Shown one piece after another: positions 23,078 through 54,925 of a stretch of 64,000 nt of DNA (positions are counted from its first letter, which is position 1; every line of letters starts with the position of its first letter). Below the pieces are notes generated by a model. It ran no database searches and was not told where the DNA came from. It was given only the letters and a program-made list of their open reading frames with translations. This DNA comes from Candidatus Methylomirabilis sp. (GTDB lineage: Bacteria > Methylomirabilota > Methylomirabilia > Methylomirabilales > 2-02-FULL-66-22). The translations under genes and the position numbers were made by a program. The stretch is taken from contig DATIFO010000045.1 in assembly GCA_035455275.1 (NCBI GenBank), forward strand, positions 2,421 through 66,420, written 5' to 3'.

Positions 23078-24103
23078 CTATTTTCTGAGGAACTTGGACT
23101 TCCAGGTCTCGATCACGCGGGCGTGGTTGTCGGCCGCCCACTCGTAGGAATAGTCGATGAACTTGGGCTTCGTCGGGTACATGGGATTGGGGGCATCGCG
23201 GGCGGAGAGATAGCCGTACTGGGCGAGCCAGCGCTGGAACTTCTCGGTCCCGGCAAAGTTCACGACCCGCTTGGCCGCCTCGAGCTGCTTCGTGCCCTTG
23301 ACGATGGTGAGGATGTTTCCCTCGTAGCCGATCCCCTCCTTGGGGGCAGACCAGTAAATGGGGAATCCCTGCTGCAGCCGCTGCGGGACCTTCTCGTCCG
23401 AGGTGATTCCCAGCATGTACTCACCCCGCCCGACGCTCTCCAGGGGCGTGTTCCCGCTCTTGGTGTACTGGGCCACGTTCTTGTCCAGCTTCTCCAGGAA
23501 TTCCCAGCCCTTCTCCCACCCGAGAAGCTGCAGGAAGGTGGCGTTGATCATGAAGGCCGTCCCCGAGGTCACCGGGGACGGCATCACGACCTCCCCTTTC
23601 CACTTGGGGTCGAGGAGATCGAACCAGGACTCGGGCAGCTTGTAGCCCTTCTTGTTCAGGAGATCTTTGTTTCCGACCAGGACGAAGGACGAGGTGCCCA
23701 CATCGTACCACGTCCCGTCCTTGTCCTTGTAACGCGTGTGGATGTCACGCCAGGCCGGGGCGTCAGGATACGGCGCCCACAGCCCTTCCCGCTTTCCCAG
23801 GATGGCCGGGCCCGGCCCGAATCCGAAGAGGACGTCCGCCCCGATGTTCGGCTTCTCGGCCTGGACGCGGGCCCACAACTCCCCGCCGGACAACCCCAGG
23901 ATCTTCACCTGAGTCTCGGTATTCTCGGACAGAATCCGCGCCAGCTCGTCCTGGACGACAAGCATGTAGGTGTAGACGCGAATCTCCTGAGCGGCCCGGG
24001 CGGGGGAGATCCCGGCGGCGAGGAGCAGTGCGAGCGCGAGCAACCCGATGGATGGTCCACTCAGCAACCGAATCCGACCACTCGATGTCCGCGGCATCTC
24101 CAT
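23078..24103 (-). CDS. ABC transporter substrate-binding protein (Fe(III)/solute-binding family 1-like)
   Basis: Start at MEM (24103 or 24097) after GGAGAGG. Signal peptide LLALALLLAAGISPARAAQE. The listed ORF 23078..24274 extends further upstream. Confidence 0.85.
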   Translation of the reverse strand: MEMPRTSSGRIRLLSGPSIGLLALALLLAAGISPARAAQEIRVYTYMLVVQDELARILSENTETQVKILGLSGGELWARVQAEKPNIGADVLFGFGPGPAILGKREGLWAPYPDAPAWRDIHTRYKDKDGTWYDVGTSSFVLVGNKDLLNKKGYKLPESWFDLLDPKWKGEVVMPSPVTSGTAFMINATFLQLLGWEKGWEFLEKLDKNVAQYTKSGNTPLESVGRGEYMLGITSDEKVPQRLQQGFPIYWSAPKEGIGYEGNILTIVKGTKQLEAAKRVVNFAGTEKFQRWLAQYGYLSARDAPNPMYPTKPKFIDYSYEWAADNHARVIETWKSKFLRK

Positions 24104-24344
24104 TCCTCTCCGTTGGATGCTGAGGGGGGCTACGGCGAAAGAAACGGCATACCCTGTGGTGCTTCGCCGTGCCCCGGTCCTGTGTGAAGGTGGCTGATCT
24201 CCCGGCCGTGTTCGGAGCCATATTCCTAGCACTACACCGGATGCATCGTCAAGCGGTGCACGGGTGGTGACCACGCTTGGGCCTCGGCGGGCTTCACCCG
24301 CACGGGTTGACCCCAGGCTGCCTCGCTTCCTGCCTGGCGGGTGA

Positions 24345-24635
24345 TCAGCACGTGGCGCCGCCGGCGAGGGGGGTCAGGACGTCCACCTTCGCGCCGTCGG
24401 GAATCACCGAGTCCAGGGACAGAAAGTCGCCGTCCAGGATCACGGCCACGATCTCGTTCATGACCTCGTCCTGGAGCCCCTCGCGGGGCACGTGCGCGCG
24501 GAGGGTGGGATAGTCGTCCAGGAGACGCAGGAAGATGTCGCGAAGCGTGGCCTGTCCCTCCCAGGAGAGCGTCAGGAGACGCTGTCCGATCCACTCGCGG
24601 AAGGGGCTGGCGAACCAGAACGTTGCCTGGGGCAT
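24345..24635 (-). CDS. MoaD/ThiS-family ubiquitin-like sulfur-carrier protein with a C-terminal extension
   Basis: 96 aa with a beta-grasp-like pattern, ending ...DGAKVDVLTPLAGG-ATC. Confidence 0.75.
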   Translation of the reverse strand: MPQATFWFASPFREWIGQRLLTLSWEGQATLRDIFLRLLDDYPTLRAHVPREGLQDEVMNEIVAVILDGDFLSLDSVIPDGAKVDVLTPLAGGATC

Positions 24636-24654
24636 GGATCACGCTCCAACGAAG

Positions 24655-24940
24655 AATGACCAATGACAAAATCCCAATGACCGATGGCCGTAACCTGACG
24701 GGAAAGGCCGGGACTCAGCGTGGGAGCCTTGCGCCTGGACGGGAGTGTGGTTTAGGATAGACCGGAAATCAATGAAAAACCGATGTGAGCGTTCAGCTCT
24801 CAGCAATCGGCGGTCAGCTTCGGATGGGGGACGGCGGTGTTCGGCACGAGCCAAGTCGGGTACACTCTCCGGAGCTGAAGGCTGAACGCTGACTGCTGAA
24901 CGCTGAGGTTTGTCATTGTCGGTGGTCGGGTTTGTCGTTG
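24655..24940. repeat. composite nested heptamer-word inverted repeat
   Basis: Outer arms are AATGACCAATGACAAAATCCCAATGACCGATGG (24655-24687) and TTTGTCATTGTCGGTGGTCGGGTTTGTCGTTG (24909-24940). An inner hairpin has arms 24785-24823 (NTCAGCN words) and 24869-24908 (TGANNGC words). Confidence 0.65.
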
Positions 24941-24959
24941 ACCCGAAGGAGCCGCGCCC

Positions 24960-26192
24960 TTGATCAAGACCGCCATTGTCGTCTGCCCCGGGGCCGAGAC
25001 GCCGGAGGCGGGCCTGCTGGGAGTGCGTGTGGCCGGCCTGCCCCTGGTTACGCGGGTCCTCCTGACCGCTCAGCAGGCGGGGGTGGGTCGATTCGTCGTC
25101 GTGGCCTCAGGTCCTCAGCAGGGGGTGCTGCGCCCCCAGATCGAGGAGGATCACCGGCTCCAGGGCCGCGTCCGATGGATAGATGCCTGCGAGCCGCCGC
25201 CGACCTCAGCCGACAGCCTGCTGCTGCTACCCAGCGTCGTGCTGGAGGCGGGGGCCTTGCGGCGGTGGCTGGAGCGGGACGCGGGCGGTGGGTGGCTCGT
25301 CGCCACGGAGGGGGCGACCGGGCCCCTCATCGTGCCTGCGCCGCACCTCCCCGCATGCATCAAGGCAGCCCAGGAGGGGTTGTCGGGGCTGGCGGGGCTC
25401 CTCGCCAAGCTGGGGGGTCGCGGAGAGGTTATCCACATCCCCTGGGACGGCGCCCCGCAACGCCCCATCCGCTCGGCGGGGGATGTCCCCGGCGTGGAAG
25501 GCGCCATGCTCGAGGCGCTCGGGTCACCGGATGACGGGCCGATCCTGGACCGCTTCGTGAACCGGAGACTCTCGGGGTGGCTCACACGGCGTCTGGTTCG
25601 CTGCCGGGTGAGCCCGAACCAGATCACCGCTGCCAGCCTGTTCACGGGCCTCCTGGGTGCATGGCTCCTGGGGCGGGAAGGCGCGCTGGCCTCGCTGGCC
25701 GGGCTCCTCCTGTTCCAACTGTCGGTGGTGCTGGACCACTCGGATGGCGAGCTGGCCCGCCTCACCTTCCGGTTCTCCCGGCTGGGAAAATGGCTGGACA
25801 ACTTCAGCGACCACGCGGTGGGTCTGGCCGTGATCGCCTGCGTGGCGTGGCGGGTGGCTGCCGAGGGGGGGGCCGGTCGCGTGGCGCTCCTCGGCATCCT
25901 GGCGGCCGTGGGCGTGACCGGATCGTTCCTGGTGGTCTTCTGGTGGACAGTCGCGAGGGAGGGAAGGACTGCGCCTGCCGGGGTGGGCGGCCGGCGCGGG
26001 CTGGCCTCCATGGCCAACCGCGACGGCTTCTGCCTGGCGCTCTGGGCCGCGGTGCTCCTGGGTCGGCCCATCTGGTTCCTGTGGGTGTTGGCCCTGGGCT
26101 CCAACGCCTACTGGCTGGCCTGGCTCCTGATCTATGGCTACCCGGGGAAGAAAGACGGGCAGGGGACCTGCGCAGGTCGTGGCGTCGTCTGA
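24960..26192 (+). CDS. CDP-alcohol phosphatidyltransferase fused to an N-terminal degenerate nucleotidyltransferase-like domain
   Basis: TTG start. The C-terminal half has DHSDGELARLTFRFSRLGKWLDNFSDH (D-G-x2-A-R-x8-G-x3-D-x3-D) and TM helices. The N-terminal approximately 190 aa is soluble. Confidence 0.8.
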   Translation: MIKTAIVVCPGAETPEAGLLGVRVAGLPLVTRVLLTAQQAGVGRFVVVASGPQQGVLRPQIEEDHRLQGRVRWIDACEPPPTSADSLLLLPSVVLEAGALRRWLERDAGGGWLVATEGATGPLIVPAPHLPACIKAAQEGLSGLAGLLAKLGGRGEVIHIPWDGAPQRPIRSAGDVPGVEGAMLEALGSPDDGPILDRFVNRRLSGWLTRRLVRCRVSPNQITAASLFTGLLGAWLLGREGALASLAGLLLFQLSVVLDHSDGELARLTFRFSRLGKWLDNFSDHAVGLAVIACVAWRVAAEGGAGRVALLGILAAVGVTGSFLVVFWWTVAREGRTAPAGVGGRRGLASMANRDGFCLALWAAVLLGRPIWFLWVLALGSNAYWLAWLLIYGYPGKKDGQGTCAGRGVV

Positions 26193-26215
26193 CCACGGAG
26201 GGATCGCAAGGCGAG

Positions 26216-27073
26216 ATGGGATCGCAGCGGTGGTGGGTGATGCGGATCGGGGGGGAGATCGTCCGACGCCTCAAGGAGCACGACCTCATGACGATGGCGG
26301 CGGCGATTGCCTTCTACTGGCTGCTGGGCCTCATCCCGCTCCTGCTCCTCGGGACGTCGGCCGTCGGGTACTTCTTGGGGTCGTCCGACCGGGCGGTGGA
26401 CGAGGTGCTGGCGGCCGGGCGACGTCTGATCCCCCGGGCCGCCGGCACCGATCTGGAGGAGTTCCTGCGGAGCCTGATCCAGAGCCGGCGCGTCACCGGG
26501 GTCCTCGGAATCGGGTTCATGGTCTGGGTGGCCATGGGTGTATTCGAGATCATCGGCATCTCGCTCACGGCGCTCACCGGGGGCAAGGAGACCCGCTCGT
26601 ATCTCCGGCGGAAGCTTGTGGCCTTGATCCTGATGTGCACCGTCGGCCTGCTGTTGATCGCGGCATTGATGGGCGGGTGGTTCCTCGCCGCATGGCCGAA
26701 TATCGAGGATCTCTTGGGAATGCGTTTGAAGCTCCCCGCCTTTCTGCTCGACCCCGGCTTTCCGCGCTACCTCGCCTCGATCCTGATAGGGGTGGCGCTG
26801 ACCATCGTGTACCATGTGGCTCCGGCCCGGGGTATCCCGTGGCCCGCCGCCATGACCGGGGCCACCGTCGCCGCGCTGCTCTGGCATCAGGCCAAGGTAT
26901 TCTTCAACTGGTACGTGACGCACTACTCCCGCCTGAACATCTTCTACGGCGTCCTGGCCGGCTTCGTCATCCTGGTCCTGTGGACCTTCTACACCGCCAT
27001 TATCTTGCTGGTGGGCGGCATGCTGGCCGATATCCTGGATCGGGGCGGTCGCCCGCCGAAGCGCGGCACCTGA
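26216..27073 (+). CDS. YihY/BrkB family membrane protein
   Basis: Internal ATG of listed ORF 25577..27073. AIAFYWLLGLIPLLLL and six TM-like segments. Confidence 0.85.
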   Translation: MGSQRWWVMRIGGEIVRRLKEHDLMTMAAAIAFYWLLGLIPLLLLGTSAVGYFLGSSDRAVDEVLAAGRRLIPRAAGTDLEEFLRSLIQSRRVTGVLGIGFMVWVAMGVFEIIGISLTALTGGKETRSYLRRKLVALILMCTVGLLLIAALMGGWFLAAWPNIEDLLGMRLKLPAFLLDPGFPRYLASILIGVALTIVYHVAPARGIPWPAAMTGATVAALLWHQAKVFFNWYVTHYSRLNIFYGVLAGFVILVLWTFYTAIILLVGGMLADILDRGGRPPKRGT

Positions 27074-27075
27074 GG

Positions 27076-29784
27076 ATGCCTTCCTCCATGGACCTCATCA
27101 GCACGCACGTGAGCGCCGACTTCGACGCCCTGGCCTCCATGGTGGCGGCGTCGAAGCTCTACAGGAAGGCCCGCCTGCTCTTCCCCGGGTCCCAGGAGCG
27201 GAACGTCCGCGAGTTCCTGCGGGAATCCCGCTTCCCCCTCCAGGCGGATCGCTTGAAGGGATTTCCCCTGGAGCGCGTCACCCGCCTCATCCTGGTGGAT
27301 GTGAAGCGCGGCACCCGGATCGGGCCGCTCCGGGACCTCTTGGGACGACCGGGGCTGGACGTGCACATCTACGACCACCATCCGGCCCATCCCAAGGACG
27401 TCCAGGGGAGCCTGGAGGTCCTGCGCGAGGTGGGGGCCACCACGACGATCCTGCTGGATCTCCTGCGGGAGCAGGAGTTGCCCCTCAGCCCGCAGGAGGC
27501 CACGCTGCTCGCCCTGGGCATCTACGAGGAGACGGGCTTCCTCACGTTCACCAACACCACCGAGGCCGACTTGCAGGCGGCGGCCTACTGCCTCTCGCGG
27601 GGGGCCAACCTGAGCATGGTCTCGGACTTCATCCGGCGGGAGCTCACGGCCGAGCAGGTCGGGCTGCTCAACGACCTCATCCGGTCGGCCGAAACGTACA
27701 CCATCAACGGGGTCCGGGTGGTGATCAGCACGGCCTCCCTGGATCGGTACGTGGGCGACATGGCCATGCTCACCCACAAGCTGCGGGACATGGAGAACAT
27801 CAACGTGCTGTTCACGCTGGTCCGCATGGACAACCGCGTGCACATGGTCGCGCGCAGCCGACTCGAGGCGGTGGATGCCGGGGAGCTGGCCGACGCTTTC
27901 GGGGGCGGCGGCCACGCCACGGCGGCCTCGGCCACGGTGAAGGACCTCACCCTGTTCCAGGTGAAGGAGCGGCTGCTCCAGCTCCTGAAGGAGCGGGTGC
28001 GGCCCCTCAAGCAGGCGCGGGACATCATGACGGCGCCGGTGAAGGCCATCCCCGAGCGGTTCACGATCCGGGGCGCGGCGGAGATCATGAACCGGTTCAA
28101 CCTGGCCCACCTGCCGGTGGTGCGCCGCGGGGAAATGGTGGGCCTCATCACCCGCGAGGTGGTGGACAAGGCCATCTTCCACGGGCTGGGCGAGGCCGCC
28201 GTCCGCGACTACATGTCCGGGGAGTTCCCCCGGGTGGCGCCCGACGCGCCCCTCCCGCAGGTGCAGCGGCTCATGGTCGAGCGGAGCCTGGGCTTTCTGC
28301 CGGTGATGGAGGGATCCCGACTCAAGGGGGCGGTGACGCGGGCGGACATCCTGCGCCATACCTACGAGGACCTCTTGAAGCGACCGACCTTCCCGGCCGC
28401 GGAGGAGCGGGAGCTGGGCGGGCCCGTGGCGCGACAGATGGCGGGGCTACTGGCCAACCGCCTGCCCCCGCGGCTCCAGTCCCTGCTGCGCCTCGGCGGC
28501 ACGGTGGCCGACGAGCTGGGCGCCAAGGTGTACGCCGTCGGCGGCTTCGTGCGGGACCTGCTGCTCCGCCACGAGAACCTGGACGTGGATCTGGTGGTGG
28601 AAGGGGACGGCATCGCCTTCGCCGAGGCCCTGGCCCGCCGCCTGGCGGGCAAGGTGACCGGCCATCCGCGCTTCGGCACGGCGGTGGTGAGCCTGCCGGA
28701 CGGCTTCAAGATCGACGTGGCCACGGCGCGCACCGAGTACTACGAGTACCCGGCGGCCCTGCCCACGGTGGAGCACAGCTCCATCAAGATGGATCTGTAC
28801 CGCCGGGACTTCACCATCAACACGCTCGCCGTCTGCCTGAACGCCGACCGGTACGGGGAGCTGCTGGATTTCTTCGGCGGGCAGCAGGACCTGCGCGACA
28901 AGACGCTCCGGATCATCCACAACCTGAGCTTCGTCGAGGACCCCACCCGGATCCTGCGCGCGGTCCGCTTCGAGGTGCGCTTCGGCTTCCACCTCAGCCG
29001 GCACGCCGAGCAGCTCATCGCCAATGCCGTCCAGATGGGCCTGCTGGCAAAGCTGTCGGGGGCCAGACTCTACACCGAGCTGCAACTGATCCTGCAGGAG
29101 GCCCGGCCCCTGGCGGTCCTGCAGCGCCTGCAGGAGCTGGCCGTCCTGGCGGCCATCCACCCGTCCCTGGACGTGAGCGCGACCACGGAGCGTCGCTTCC
29201 AGCGGGTCGGGGAGGTCCTGACCTGGTACAGCCTGCTGTACCAGGAGGACCAGCCCACCCCCTGGATCGTGTACCTGCTGACCCTCCTGGGGGAGCGGGT
29301 CGGGACCGAGGCCCGCGCCATCCTGCGGCGCCTGGGACCGCCGCCCCGACCGGCCGCCATGCTCGCCAGAGACCTCACCCGGCTCCGCGGGCTGGCGCGG
29401 CAGATCCACCAGGCACAGGAGCTGCCACCCAGCCGGGTCTTCCGCTGGCTGGCGGATGCGCCGCTGGAGGTCGTCCTGGCCCTGATGGCCCGGATGGAAC
29501 GACCGGAGCTTCGCAAGTCGGTTGGCGACTTCCTCGCCACCACGCGGCGCATCCGCCCGCACCTGCGGGGCGACGACCTCCGGGCCCTGGGCATCCGGCC
29601 GGGGCCGATCTACCGGGAAATCCTGAACTCGGTCCTGTACGCGAGGCTCGACGGCCACGTGCAGAACCGGGACGACGAGCTGCGCTTCGTCCGCCAGCGG
29701 TTCGCCCGCGCCCTCGCCGCAGGCGCCAGCGACAGCCCCGCTCGGCGATTGACAAACCGGGGCGGATCGGGTACGGTTCGATAA
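27076..29784 (+). CDS. DHH-DHHA1 / CBS-pair / tRNA nucleotidyltransferase (CCA-adding or poly(A) polymerase family) fusion protein
   Basis: Internal ATG (MPSSMDLISTH). Motifs in order: DHH (IYDHHP), GGGGH, two CBS modules, then GGFVRDLLL..DVDLVV and RRDFTINT of the pol-beta nucleotidyltransferase head. Confidence 0.85.
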   Translation: MPSSMDLISTHVSADFDALASMVAASKLYRKARLLFPGSQERNVREFLRESRFPLQADRLKGFPLERVTRLILVDVKRGTRIGPLRDLLGRPGLDVHIYDHHPAHPKDVQGSLEVLREVGATTTILLDLLREQELPLSPQEATLLALGIYEETGFLTFTNTTEADLQAAAYCLSRGANLSMVSDFIRRELTAEQVGLLNDLIRSAETYTINGVRVVISTASLDRYVGDMAMLTHKLRDMENINVLFTLVRMDNRVHMVARSRLEAVDAGELADAFGGGGHATAASATVKDLTLFQVKERLLQLLKERVRPLKQARDIMTAPVKAIPERFTIRGAAEIMNRFNLAHLPVVRRGEMVGLITREVVDKAIFHGLGEAAVRDYMSGEFPRVAPDAPLPQVQRLMVERSLGFLPVMEGSRLKGAVTRADILRHTYEDLLKRPTFPAAEERELGGPVARQMAGLLANRLPPRLQSLLRLGGTVADELGAKVYAVGGFVRDLLLRHENLDVDLVVEGDGIAFAEALARRLAGKVTGHPRFGTAVVSLPDGFKIDVATARTEYYEYPAALPTVEHSSIKMDLYRRDFTINTLAVCLNADRYGELLDFFGGQQDLRDKTLRIIHNLSFVEDPTRILRAVRFEVRFGFHLSRHAEQLIANAVQMGLLAKLSGARLYTELQLILQEARPLAVLQRLQELAVLAAIHPSLDVSATTERRFQRVGEVLTWYSLLYQEDQPTPWIVYLLTLLGERVGTEARAILRRLGPPPRPAAMLARDLTRLRGLARQIHQAQELPPSRVFRWLADAPLEVVLALMARMERPELRKSVGDFLATTRRIRPHLRGDDLRALGIRPGPIYREILNSVLYARLDGHVQNRDDELRFVRQRFARALAAGASDSPARRLTNRGGSGTVR

Positions 29785-33029: not shown

Positions 33030-33602
33030 GCGAGCCTCGAGCCGCGAGCCACGGGGGGCGAGCCGTGAGCTGCGAGCCGCGAATGGACTTGGGGGGAGGG
33101 AGGTCACGAACCGTCAGGGGTGGAGACTCCAATAACCGCGCCGGTGAAAGGAGGGTACACCATGTTTCGGTTCGAGCGTCTCAGGGTGTGGCACAAAGCG
33201 ATCGAACTTTATGAAGCGGTGGACGAGGTCAGCCGCAGGTTTCCCGGAAAGCCAGAGTTCTTTCTTTCGGACCAACTGAGGCGCGCAACCCTTTCCATCT
33301 CTTCGAATATTGCGGAAGGTTCTGGGCGAGAAACCACAAAGGACGCTCAGCACTTCTATACAATTGCGAAGGGCTCTGCCTTCGAGGTGGTCAGCATCGC
33401 CACGGTTTGCCATCGCCGTGGACTCATTTCGACTGAACACTACCGCGACATGTACGGACGCGTGGAGGACATCGCGAAGATGCTGAGCGGCCTCAAACGC
33501 GTCCAACAGACGGACTAATCCCCGCTCGTGTCATGTCGCGGCTCCCCGGTTCAGCCTTCGATAATTCGTCGCGGCTCGCGGCTCTAGGATCGAGGCTCGA
33601 CC
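33030..33602 (+). mobile_element. IVS-like cassette: four-helix-bundle ORF bounded by inverted heptamer arrays
   Basis: The left arm (33030-33086) is eight CGAGCCN-type heptamers. The right arm (33521-33602) carries the complementary NGGCTCG words. The outermost 10 nt are perfectly complementary (CGAGCCTCGA / TCGAGGCTCG). The cassette fills the whole guaB-guaA spacer. Confidence 0.5.
33162..33518 (+). CDS. four-helix-bundle protein (23S rRNA intervening-sequence protein / Avd family)
   Basis: SD AAAGGAGGG. MFRFERLRVWHKAIEL...LSDQLRRATLSISSNIAEGSGR...GSAFEV matches the family pattern (F..L.VW.KA..L, Q..RAA.SI..NIAEG). Confidence 0.9.
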   Translation: MFRFERLRVWHKAIELYEAVDEVSRRFPGKPEFFLSDQLRRATLSISSNIAEGSGRETTKDAQHFYTIAKGSAFEVVSIATVCHRRGLISTEHYRDMYGRVEDIAKMLSGLKRVQQTD

Positions 33603-53639: not shown

Positions 53640-54838
53640 ACTTTGGCATCCTTGGGGCGAAAGGCTTGGCCTCGGAGCGGGAGGGTCCCGCGCACCCGGA
53701 TCAACTCCTGGTAGAGTTCCAGCATCCTGGCCGCCAGCGCGTCCGGCGCATAGCCCGCCGCAACATGCCGCCCGCCCCGCCCCATGGCCTGCCGCCGCTC
53801 GGGCTGCCCCCACAGCGTGACGACCTGGTCCGCGAACGCCGCCGGGTCCTCGGGTACCATCGTGCCGCCTTCCCCGTTCCGCAGGAGTTCCGCCGCCGCG
53901 TCCGAGGTGACGGCCACCACGGGGAGGCCAGCGGCCAACGCCTCCAGGATCACGAGACCCTGCGTCTCGGACGTGGAGGGAAAAAGGAAAAGGTCTGCCG
54001 CTTGATAGTAGGTGCCCACGACCCCGTGTGGGACGGCGCCGGTGAAGTGCATCTTTGGCTCGAGGCCCAGGTCACGGGCCATCCGTTCCAGCCGCAGGCG
54101 GTCGTCTCCCTCGCCCACGAGGACCAACCGGGCCGTCGGGAGCTGTGTCAGGATCCGGGCGAACGCCGACAGGAGAAATGCTTGGTTCTTCTCCCGGGCC
54201 AGCCTCCCCACCGAGAGGCAGAGAGGGTCCCCCCGACAGAGGCCGAGGGTCCGGCGCGAGGCCTGGCGATCCGCCTCGGCCATGATCGGCGGGACCGTGA
54301 CGCCGGTCGGGATCACCTCCAGCGGCGCGTGAAGGCCGCGGGCCCGGAGCTCCCGCGCCACGGCGGTCGTGGGGGCGATCACCAGATCGGACCGGTTGGC
54401 GAAGGCCAGGGCCCGGCCGACCGCAAGGCGGACCACCAGACGAGACGGACCGGGAACGTAGTGGGCGTAGCACTCATAGCGGGTGTGATAGGTGAAGACC
54501 AGGGGCCGCCCCAGGTGACGGGCCCAGCGCCCCGCCGCTGCCCCGAGCAGGAACGGGTGCTGGGCATGGAAGATGTCGAGGTCGAGCCTTGCGACCGCGC
54601 TGGCCACGCCCGGCCACCTCGAGAGAGGAAGGATGTAGGCGTGGTGAGTCGGCGCCCGGAACCCGGGGACCCGCAGGATGTCCGGCTCCCCGCCAGGCAG
54701 AGCTCCGTAGCGGGGCGCCACAACAGTCACCCGGTGGCCGGCGCGGCGGAAGGCCCTGGCAAACGTCTCCACCGAGGTGGCCAGCCCATTGGCCAGCGGC
54801 CGGTAGTTATTGGTGAAGAGGCCGATGTGCATCCTCAA
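53636..54838 (-). CDS. glycosyltransferase family 4
   Basis: 400 aa with a GT-B fold pattern and E-x7-E motif FPSTSETQGLVILEALAAGLPVV. Confidence 0.85.
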   Translation of the reverse strand: MRMHIGLFTNNYRPLANGLATSVETFARAFRRAGHRVTVVAPRYGALPGGEPDILRVPGFRAPTHHAYILPLSRWPGVASAVARLDLDIFHAQHPFLLGAAAGRWARHLGRPLVFTYHTRYECYAHYVPGPSRLVVRLAVGRALAFANRSDLVIAPTTAVARELRARGLHAPLEVIPTGVTVPPIMAEADRQASRRTLGLCRGDPLCLSVGRLAREKNQAFLLSAFARILTQLPTARLVLVGEGDDRLRLERMARDLGLEPKMHFTGAVPHGVVGTYYQAADLFLFPSTSETQGLVILEALAAGLPVVAVTSDAAAELLRNGEGGTMVPEDPAAFADQVVTLWGQPERRQAMGRGGRHVAAGYAPDALAARMLELYQELIRVRGTLPLRGQAFRPKDAKV

Positions 54839-54840
54839 GC

Positions 54841-54925
54841 CTTCAGCGCGGAGCCCTCAGCCATCCCCCCACCCACCCCCCTCGAGGGGGAGGGGTGGGT
54901 GGGGGGCCGACCGCTGACTGCTGAG
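54841..54925. repeat. nested element: TCAGC-word arms around a C-tract/G-tract palindrome
   Basis: The outer arms are cTTCAGCGcggagcCCTCAGCc and cCGCTGACTGCTGAGG. The inner palindrome is CCCCCCACCCACCCCCC tcga GGGGGAGGGGTGGGTGGGGGG (54865-54906). Confidence 0.65.

Follow-up and report, generated by a model that had tools for sequence, protein, structure and literature searches.

The 324-nt spacer between two divergently transcribed genes of a Candidatus Methylomirabilis genome, a ThiS/MoaD-like gene and a gene with a CDP-alcohol phosphatidyltransferase domain (hereafter thiS and cdp), carries arrays of 7-nt words arranged as nested inverted repeats. It lies in the 64,000-nt stretch analysed here (the window), which corresponds to positions 2421-66420 of contig C45 in a 6.97-Mb assembly of 286 contigs and 66.8% G+C. 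An earlier note on the window had described a TCAGC-word inverted repeat inside an ATGACCA-word inverted repeat, and had proposed that one element was inserted into another. The reading favoured here, with moderate confidence, is that at least three gene-less heptamer-array modules were acquired separately and now form a mosaic around an ancestral promoter-like block in the spacer. These modules would be relatives of small cassettes whose full-length members consist of a gene for a four-helix-bundle (4HB) protein (PF05635, Avd/S23p-like, known as the "23S rRNA intervening-sequence protein"), bracketed by inverted arrays of one 7-nt word. Below, G000 denotes the genome of the window, L numbers the loci extracted from relatives, and X3-X5 strain variants found in metagenomes.

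Orthologous spacers and unequal age of the arms

Ten species (the window and nine others) share the block TTGCG(C/T)-N18-TA(G/A)(G/A)AT followed by GGAAATCAAG.GGAAA (24729-24781 in the window), with the positions TTGC and GT.TGGT.TA..AT invariant in the alignment. The block sits between the outer arms and is kept in the nine related species, which do not have these repeats. From its conservation and spacing, it is the putative cdp promoter. The distance from the block to the start codon is 44-45 nt in two hairpin-free loci (L122 and L124), 100-159 nt in others, and 211 nt here. The sequence in this interval is hypervariable across the genus.

At the position of the inner hairpin, the orthologous spacers carry no hairpin, or a different one, so that the comparison reveals hairpin presence or absence and not the gradual divergence of one sequence, in line with the earlier proposal. 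In L113, the closest relative, a GACAAC/GTTGTC-type hairpin lies between the block and the Shine-Dalgarno (SD) sequence, and the right arm and SD region of this hairpin align with the right outer arm of the window. From this alignment, the TTGTC-type right arm seems to be older than the enclosed TCAGC hairpin. The thiS-proximal part of the spacer exceeds that of five orthologues by 26-33 nt, and all five show a 28-37-nt gap opposite the AATGACC module, the exact edges being alignment-dependent. The genome and metagenome collections contained no closer relative above about 62% protein identity, hence no nucleotide-level empty site.

The left module is a young, sharply bounded dispersed copy. 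It is identical at 32 of 33 positions to a 33-nt genome consensus of fixed word order, which has 39 matches with at most six mismatches, and its copies found by BLAST show 94-100% identity across 28-36 nt. In soil metagenomes, the depth over this arm rises about 17-fold, and many foreign contigs match it, with similarity ending at 24655 and 24687/24690. The right arm, for which no BLAST copy was found elsewhere in the genome, is degenerate and probably older. It has A-to-G differences from the canonical words, and a G>A change at 24937 in the X3-X5 strains restores TTTGTCATTG. Between two haplotypes, the right arm has 3 substitutions in 32 nt and the inner arms have none, while the spacer as a whole shows 7 differences in 324 nt vs. 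2 in the adjoining coding sequence (about 390 nt).

The same observations bear on the idea that 24655-24940 is one composite mobile element, inserted as a unit with the inner element in the outer loop. In its favour, 20 of the 24 positions in the outer arms can pair, and nested GCGCA-CAGAG-TCAGC composites do recur on contigs C77, C164, C195, and C274 of the genome. Nevertheless, the interval between the arms holds the conserved promoter-like block and pre-core sequence, collinear with arm-less species, the arms are of unequal age, and the genome has no second copy of the 24655-24940 composite. One composite element is, for these reasons, highly improbable, and a single composite miniature inverted-repeat transposable element (MITE) was ruled out by the orthologue alignments. 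For the TCAGC unit, plausibly younger than the right arm, entry into an already existing hairpin is a plausible account. The same account fails for the outer pair taken together, which is not one element and whose loop contains ancestral sequence.

Architecture and predicted folding of the spacer

The features of the spacer and its two flanking genes are collected in Table 1. The structure has three tiers, not two. The outer arms that the earlier note placed at 24655-24687 and 24909-24940 are present and pair in the minimum-energy fold, where a helix of 20 pairs (two being G.U), interrupted by a 2-nt bulge, links 24661-24684 to 24919-24940. A second outer helix, which the note had not separated from them, joins 24770-24781 to 24907-24918 and directly closes the inner hairpin. 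Within the right outer arm, GGTTTGTCATTG closes this middle stem and TCGGTGGTCGGGTTTGTCGTTG pairs with 24661-24684. In the orthologue consensus of the middle-stem region, CAAGCGGAAAGG, only 6 of the 12 positions would pair (hand count).

Table 1. Features of the thiS-cdp spacer and its flanking genes, in window coordinates
Feature	Position	Strand	Basis and remarks
ThiS/MoaD-like gene (thiS)	24345-24635	-	Pfam PF02597 ThiS, E 9.1e-5, above curated cut-off; left neighbour, leftward transcription
Left outer arm, AATGACC-AATGACA-AAATCCC-AATGACC-GATGG, 33-nt AATGACC-family module	24655-24687	.	Sequence, genome consensus
Promoter-like block: TTGCGC (24729-24734), 18-nt spacer, TAGGAT (24753-24758)	24729-24758	+	10-species alignment
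Middle stem, left half, CAATGAAAAACC	24770-24781	+	11/12 pairing with 24907-24918; overlaps conserved GGAAATCAAG..GAAA block downstream of -10
Inner hairpin, 5' arm, four TCAGC-type heptamer words (TCAGC, TCAGC, TCGGC, TCAGC) into apical stem	24788-24824	+	Repeat finding, fold
Inner hairpin, apical region, small local helices in fold	24825-24867	+	No other G000 copy (blastn-short)
Inner hairpin, 3' arm, GCTGAnn words, strict period 7	24868-24904	+	Tandem Repeats Finder
Right outer arm, GGTTTGTCATTG-TCGGTGGTCGGGTTTGTCGTTG, degenerate TTGTC/GGTCATT-type array	24907-24940	+	Pairing list
Shine-Dalgarno AAGGAG of cdp, then TTG start at 24960	24946-24951	+	Read from sequence; orthologue starts align
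CDP-alcohol phosphatidyltransferase-domain gene (cdp)	24960-26192	+	PF01066, E 5.5e-10; right neighbour

The inner inverted repeat of unrelated words in a 7-nt register was recovered by repeat finding, by Tandem Repeats Finder (24874-24906, period 7, 4.7 copies), and by folding. Its arms (24788-24824 and 24868-24904) are 37 nt each and 78% complementary around a 43-nt loop, and the fold consists of 5-bp TCAGC:GCTGA helices split by 2x2 internal loops. At -71 kcal/mol (z -6.1), it was equalled by none of 200 shuffles. The asymmetric placement described earlier also holds, with about 97 nt to the left arm and 0-3 nt to the right one. The whole-spacer fold (321 nt) is moderately better than shuffles, with z -3.4 on the plus strand and -3.1 on the minus strand.

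The cdp mRNA would start near 24765, and the middle stem together with the inner hairpin would then form a rod of about 150 nt. With such a start, the left arm would lie outside the cdp mRNA and the outer pairing could not form there. The 5' untranslated region (5'UTR) folds at -100 kcal/mol, and the rod begins 6 nt from the inferred start. RNase III may cut this rod, as it does the stems of rRNA intervening sequences.

Going further, the middle stem and TCAGC hairpin could be a selected RNA, that is, a functional cdp 5'UTR stabiliser, an RNase III site, or a means of translational control. The position between the inferred promoter and the SD, the stability of the 5'UTR fold with its rod close to the start, and inner arms free of substitutions between haplotypes are all consistent with this, as is the suggestion that the hairpins of cyanobacterial short tandemly repeated repetitive (STRR) sequences stabilise transcripts (PMC2670836). 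Nevertheless, orthologues have no hairpin or a different one there, and the G.U counts are alike on both strands (10 vs. 9) and, as such, uninformative on strand-specific RNA selection. No Rfam family matches the spacer, a permissive search of 24000-25600 giving two chance-level matches only, both outside it. The X5 haplotype, moreover, carries changes at 24773 and 24913 that weaken the middle stem without compensation, a pattern that does not suggest a structure under strong selection. No RNA run was found to contain the stretch. A selected RNA is, on balance, improbable.

Heptamer-array families across the genome

Under one common criterion (at least 4 units, at least 85% match), the genome has 91 arrays of period 7 vs. 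16-31 for periods 5, 6, and 8, i.e., a three- to sixfold excess. A reverse-complement partner was found within 400 nt for 119 of 700 arrays, while the reversed-not-complemented control gave 9. TGACCAATGAC is found 63 times vs. 1.2 expected. After merging, the genome-wide clustering called for in the earlier note yielded about 101 period-7 hairpins in about ten word families, so other copies do exist. Their loops span 6-349 nt, with a median of 42. The largest family is AATGACC (31 hairpins), followed by ACGTAAA (15), TCAGCnn (9), GCGCAnn (8), GCTCATG (5), GACAACn (4), and CGAGCCn and TTCGAAn (3 each). The classifier assigned one hairpin each to CAGAGnT and GGCAGCn, further copies of which are visible in the array list. 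Among the 114 raw array pairs, 34 matched no family pattern, some being plain GC-rich repeats. In "intergenic" DNA, the lag autocorrelation signal was overwhelmed by coding periodicity left behind by a crude gene caller, which also mis-assigns strands.

The polarity of the arms is fixed genome-wide: the TCAGC array comes before the GCTGA array in 19 cases against 0, and AATGACC before GGTCATT in 31 against 0. Every one of the 21 genomes of the genus contains the AATGACC-family 13-mer AATGACCAATGAC, in 1-107 copies; 40 genomes of the order's other genera have it 0-1 times. Both word families are dispersed, lineage-specific repeats, which bears out the earlier argument against local slippage.

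A purely local origin, with arrays created by 7-nt replication slippage, inverted partners by fold-back or template switching, and nothing having moved, would account for the variable number of words among copies. Heptamer copy number likewise varies among Coxiella strains (PMC4990558), and one proposal attributes heptamer excess to the footprint of the polymerase (cited in PMC4692102). The variable dinucleotides of the TCAGC arms, which pair in 62% of cases vs. 98% for the cores, also fit this explanation. It leaves aside, however, the fixed 33-nt word order of the left arm at about 39 sites with unrelated flanks, a one-sided polarity unexpected from symmetric fold-back, the occurrence of the same words around 4HB genes in other species, and a family that is genus-wide and missing from neighbouring genera. 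It is, therefore, unlikely.

Nesting is real and recurrent, yet it is a minority state. A period-7 array lies within the hairpin loop in 7 of 101 cases, five of them from another family, against about 1.4 expected (an estimate from array density). A three-tier order, GCGCAnn outside CAGAGnT outside TCAGC, recurs in the same outside-to-inside sequence in the "onion" hairpins at C77:12120-12275, C164:28560-28775, C195:9115-9260, and C274:9940-10080 of G000.

The 13-mer CGCTGACTGCTGA of the inner right arm (24887-24899) does recur exactly at 54912-54924, as had been pointed out, and has five occurrences in the genome. Its use as evidence of copying fails, as it is one of 130 NGCTGAnnGCTGA word dimers, of which 28 of 46 distinct ones recur. 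The shared 13-mer is a matter of family membership, not of copying between loci. The second site belongs to a TCAGC/GCTGA-armed hairpin (window 54829-54925) around a C-rich/G-rich palindrome, CCCCCCACCCACCCCCCTCGAGGGGGAGGGGTGGGTGGGGGG, between two apparent minus-strand genes. A similar G/C palindrome is found inside an AATGACC hairpin at G000:C152:897.

Link to PF05635 cassettes

The flanks of PF05635 genes were drawn from the genus and a few neighbouring genera, and 72 hidden Markov model matches with usable flanks (two loci counted twice) were scanned for arrays within 260 nt. Period-7 arrays are present on both sides of 37 of the 72 matches in the genus, and are complementary in 34, vs. 0 of 2000 random segments. 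Most word families of the gene-less G000 hairpins also serve as the arms of cassettes in one genome or another of the genus. The typical position of a cassette is the narrow gap from a stop codon to the ribosome-binding site that follows. PF05635 genes are common in congeners, and three intact copies are found in G000, two with CGAGCC- or GAACGTT-type arms and the third without evident arrays. PF05635 is reported to be homologous to Avd, a protein of diversity-generating retroelements (DGRs) (PMC10053308), and PDB entry 2gsc (Xcc0516, in which four-helix bundles form a pentamer) is matched by the window's own 4HB protein at E 9.5e-15.

TCAGC/GCTGA arms bracket a 4HB gene in L211, L213, and L216, and, across 27-32 nt, the inner 3' arm of the present spacer shares 87-90% identity with the right arms of the cassettes L211 and L213. 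In these two loci (L211, 680-725; L213, 680-722), the right-arm array GCTGAnn encodes the 4HB C-terminal KLKADR and the TGA stop, such that arm and gene overlap. AATGACA/AAATCC arms bracket a 4HB gene in L196 and L200, and AATGACC arrays were flagged in L188/L201 on the upstream side of the gene only (gene-oriented view).

The orthologous site of the intact cassette L211 (genome G009) lies on contig C162 of G000, where a shortened TCAGC arm, the GCTGA arm, and the last 37 4HB codons remain. It is a cassette caught decaying into a gene-less hairpin by internal deletion. This decayed cassette (L251, G000:C162:18950-19850) occupies positions 415-545 of its locus, between an SDR-type gene and the next gene.

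The present inner hairpin shares several features with the heptamer-armed PF05635 cassettes, i.e., paired 7-nt arrays, fixed polarity, and words that bracket PF05635 genes in relatives. There is no PF05635 gene or remnant between its arms, and the loop measures 43-55 nt; it is, therefore, filed as a gene-less relative and not as a cassette.

Arm words co-vary with the 4HB protein. With the L196 protein as reference, the arm word is AATGACA at 100% and 91% identity, AATGACC at 68%, AATTTCC at 60%, GACAACC in three of four loci at 42-46%, TCGAAA in two loci at 44-45%, and GGAGAAT at 31%. In the guaB-guaA spacer, a 4HB cassette occupies one site in at least four species (window 33030-33602 and L184, L191, L237). 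Its arm word differs slightly by species (GCGAGCC, AGAGCCG, CGAGCCA) but is uniform inside any one cassette, a pattern suggestive of concerted evolution among the arrays.

Paired arrays that follow 4HB lineages could also be read as regulatory sites, bound by a multimeric regulator (e.g., a 4HB pentamer) that loops or occludes the divergent promoter. The arrays straddle the block at about -70/-100 and +140/+175 from the inferred start and lie about 19 nt from each start codon. Such an interpretation, as sites of a global regulator, has been given to the Geobacter pairs, in which sets of 3-5 tandem heptamers occupy opposite strands and are separated by a variable distance (PMC2700814). Against such a role, G000 has about ten word families and no 4HB gene cognate to AATGACC or TCAGC, orthologous spacers work without any array, and the right arm is decaying, with its 3 substitutions between haplotypes. 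Regulation by bound arrays, thus, seems to have a low probability.

Another possibility is that the arrays are written or homogenised by a machinery with an Avd-like 4HB protein, each 4HB lineage setting its own 7-nt word. One word per pentamer subunit is one possibility under this scheme, and gene-less arrays and nested "onions" would be products of the machinery at hairpin apices. The co-variation of words with 4HB identity, and the homogeneity of words within a cassette together with their differences between orthologous cassettes, allow such writing. Nevertheless, plain co-descent of gene and arms explains the co-variation of word and protein equally well, and the writing of arrays is regarded here as rather doubtful.

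Proposed origin of the mosaic

Under the mosaic reading, the inner TCAGC/GCTGA hairpin would be a gene-less member of the TCAGC-armed cassette lineage. It would sit at the apex of a short AATGA/TCATT stem, the right half of which would be an older TTGTC-type array. The left AATGACC module would be a recent solo copy that landed upstream of the promoter, and its complementarity to the older right array would be due to the relatedness of the AATGACA and GACAA/TTGTC words. Modules presumably spread as DNA by a hairpin-dependent mechanism without target duplication, and new ones may land preferentially in or beside existing hairpins, while slippage would tune the number of words per array. They are most likely selfish or neutral passengers, tolerated because the promoter and SD are spared.

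Other members of the AATGACC family have a more defined form. In two species (G003 and G011), several loci carry a MITE-like subfamily that combines a conserved loop with conserved TTCGCGAA palindromes on its flanks. At L099-L101, L107, L108, and L110, the conserved loop is 55 nt long and the flanking palindromes read ATTATTCGCGAAC-ATG-TTCGCGAATAAT. The subfamily is common to the two species at about 95% identity.

The Y1 transposases associated with repetitive extragenic palindromic (REP) sequences (RAYT) were considered as mobilisers and rejected, since 8 of the 11 PF01797 loci in G000 were checked and had no word-family array within 1.5 kb. Four of these eight have no period-7 array and the others only low-complexity GC-rich stretches. 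The Y1 transposases also correlate weakly with AATGACC density.

Several observations weigh against the mosaic reading. The strain variants of the spacer in eight soil metagenomes differ by substitutions only, with no joints or indels and no presence/absence polymorphism; no insertion was, therefore, caught in the act. The uncompensated X5 changes in the middle stem also count here. Target-site duplications are absent at 24655/24687 and at 24785/24908, and no mobilising enzyme was identified. The inner hairpin loop has no other copy in G000 and no similarity to cassette interiors, so it is the arms that carry the case for descent from a gene-bearing cassette. G000 contains no cognate AATGACC- or TCAGC-type 4HB gene. 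Across the 21 genomes, the AATGACC copy number correlates weakly with the 4HB count, at a rho of 0.38-0.48, uncorrected for phylogeny or the quality of the metagenome-assembled genomes (MAGs), and G018 has 98 copies of the AATGACC 13-mer with one weak 4HB match. Cassettes at orthologous sites across species, such as that of guaB-guaA, are long-lived residents and not frequent movers. Lastly, a promoter/terminator consensus scan of the spacer made no call, and the block matches sigma-70 at 7 of 12 positions.

Comparison with known repeat systems

The closest known parallel is the intervening sequence (IVS) of 23S rRNA genes with an S23p/4HB gene, described in Coxiella burnetii and Leptospira (PMC4990558). 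Both have a long stem and inverted heptamer repeats around a PF05635 gene (here a gene-less remnant). The Coxiella IVS stem contains GACAGAT tandem heptamers, is strain-variable in their number, and is cut by RNase III (PMC4990558). In contrast, the present element is found in the spacer of protein genes, between the ThiS-like and CDP-alcohol transferase genes and not in a 23S rRNA gene. It has no open reading frame between its arms, and modules of several word families are nested or juxtaposed.

The STRR sequences of cyanobacteria are 7-bp repeats that form hairpins between genes, and they share with the present arrays the intergenic tandem 7-bp organisation, the existence of several word families, and the capacity to form hairpins (PMC2670836). 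Here, however, the host belongs to the Methylomirabilota/NC10, with 67% G+C, and the arrays are mostly inverted pairs of fixed polarity, tied to 4HB cassettes, a link that the STRR papers do not make. STRR sequences were also the subject of work by Mazel et al. in 1990. One Calothrix STRR unit is reportedly TTGGTCA, the complement word of the AATGACC family; a literature check gave no confirmation.

The paired heptanucleotide sites of Geobacter metallireducens (classes 2 and 3) also comprise 3-5 tandem heptamers on opposite strands at variable distance, at many intergenic sites, and the word MTYCTGA resembles TCAGnnn (PMC2700814). About 101 pairs in G000 are of this type. Unlike the present arrays, the Geobacter sites were interpreted as protein-binding, and no nesting, cassette gene, or comparative loss or gain was reported (PMC2700814).

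The REP sequences, bacterial interspersed mosaic elements (BIME), and REP doublets forming hairpins (REPIN), with their RAYT, are likewise short, gene-less, hairpin-forming intergenic repeats that build lineage-specific mosaics without target duplications (PMC3116915). The repeats described here have no GTAG-type conserved head, and their units are arrays of 7-nt words; no cognate RAYT flanked by repeats was found at the eight Y1 loci checked. The spacer does not qualify as a MITE either, with no target-site duplication and loops that are unique in G000.

Intergenic heptamer excess, with some inverted pairs, frequent mixing of different heptamers, and high variation between close relatives, is also known for the GGGAATC heptamers of Xanthomonas and GGGGA(T/C)T heptamers of Nostoc (PMC4692102), and for the TAACTGA repeats of Beggiatoaceae, cyanobacteria, and Bacteroidetes (PMC4679880). 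These differ in being mostly direct repeats, studied as G-quadruplex or translational elements, with no reported link to a cassette gene.

The repeat class has, thus, already been glimpsed in the literature, and the added value of the present locus is modest. Reports of an unexplained intergenic excess of 7-bp repeats in cyanobacteria, Xanthomonas, Geobacter, and Beggiatoa go back decades. Outside DGRs, to our knowledge, no role is known for the small PF05635 proteins that rRNA intervening sequences encode, which are homologues of the DGR accessory protein Avd. The genus offers a clean comparative case, in which gene-less hairpins share words and polarity with 4HB cassettes, and in which cassettes decay into hairpins. 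Modules build up next to promoter and ribosome-binding signals and spare the signals themselves. Assemblies break at such mosaics, which can also pass for regulatory RNAs or binding sites, and very stable structures in 5'UTRs and operon junctions may affect mRNA processing. If true, the writing of arrays by a 4HB machinery would mean that the STRR, TAACTGA, GGGAATC, and Geobacter-type repeats, as well as the rRNA intervening sequences, are all traces left by a single system.

Neighbouring genes

The ThiS-like gene has orthologues that adjoin the cdp gene in L085, L087, L113, L121, and L122. Downstream of the spacer, a 1216-aa open frame (window 26134-29784) joins DHH, DHHA1, and two CBS domains to a poly(A) polymerase/CCA-adding head and its RNA-binding domain. 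The closest relatives of this large CCA-enzyme fusion protein are found in MAGs labelled Candidatus Methylomirabilota or NC10, and the DHH-CBS-CCA-adding fusion frame is kept from Methylomirabilota to Nitrospirota and Thermodesulfobacteriota.

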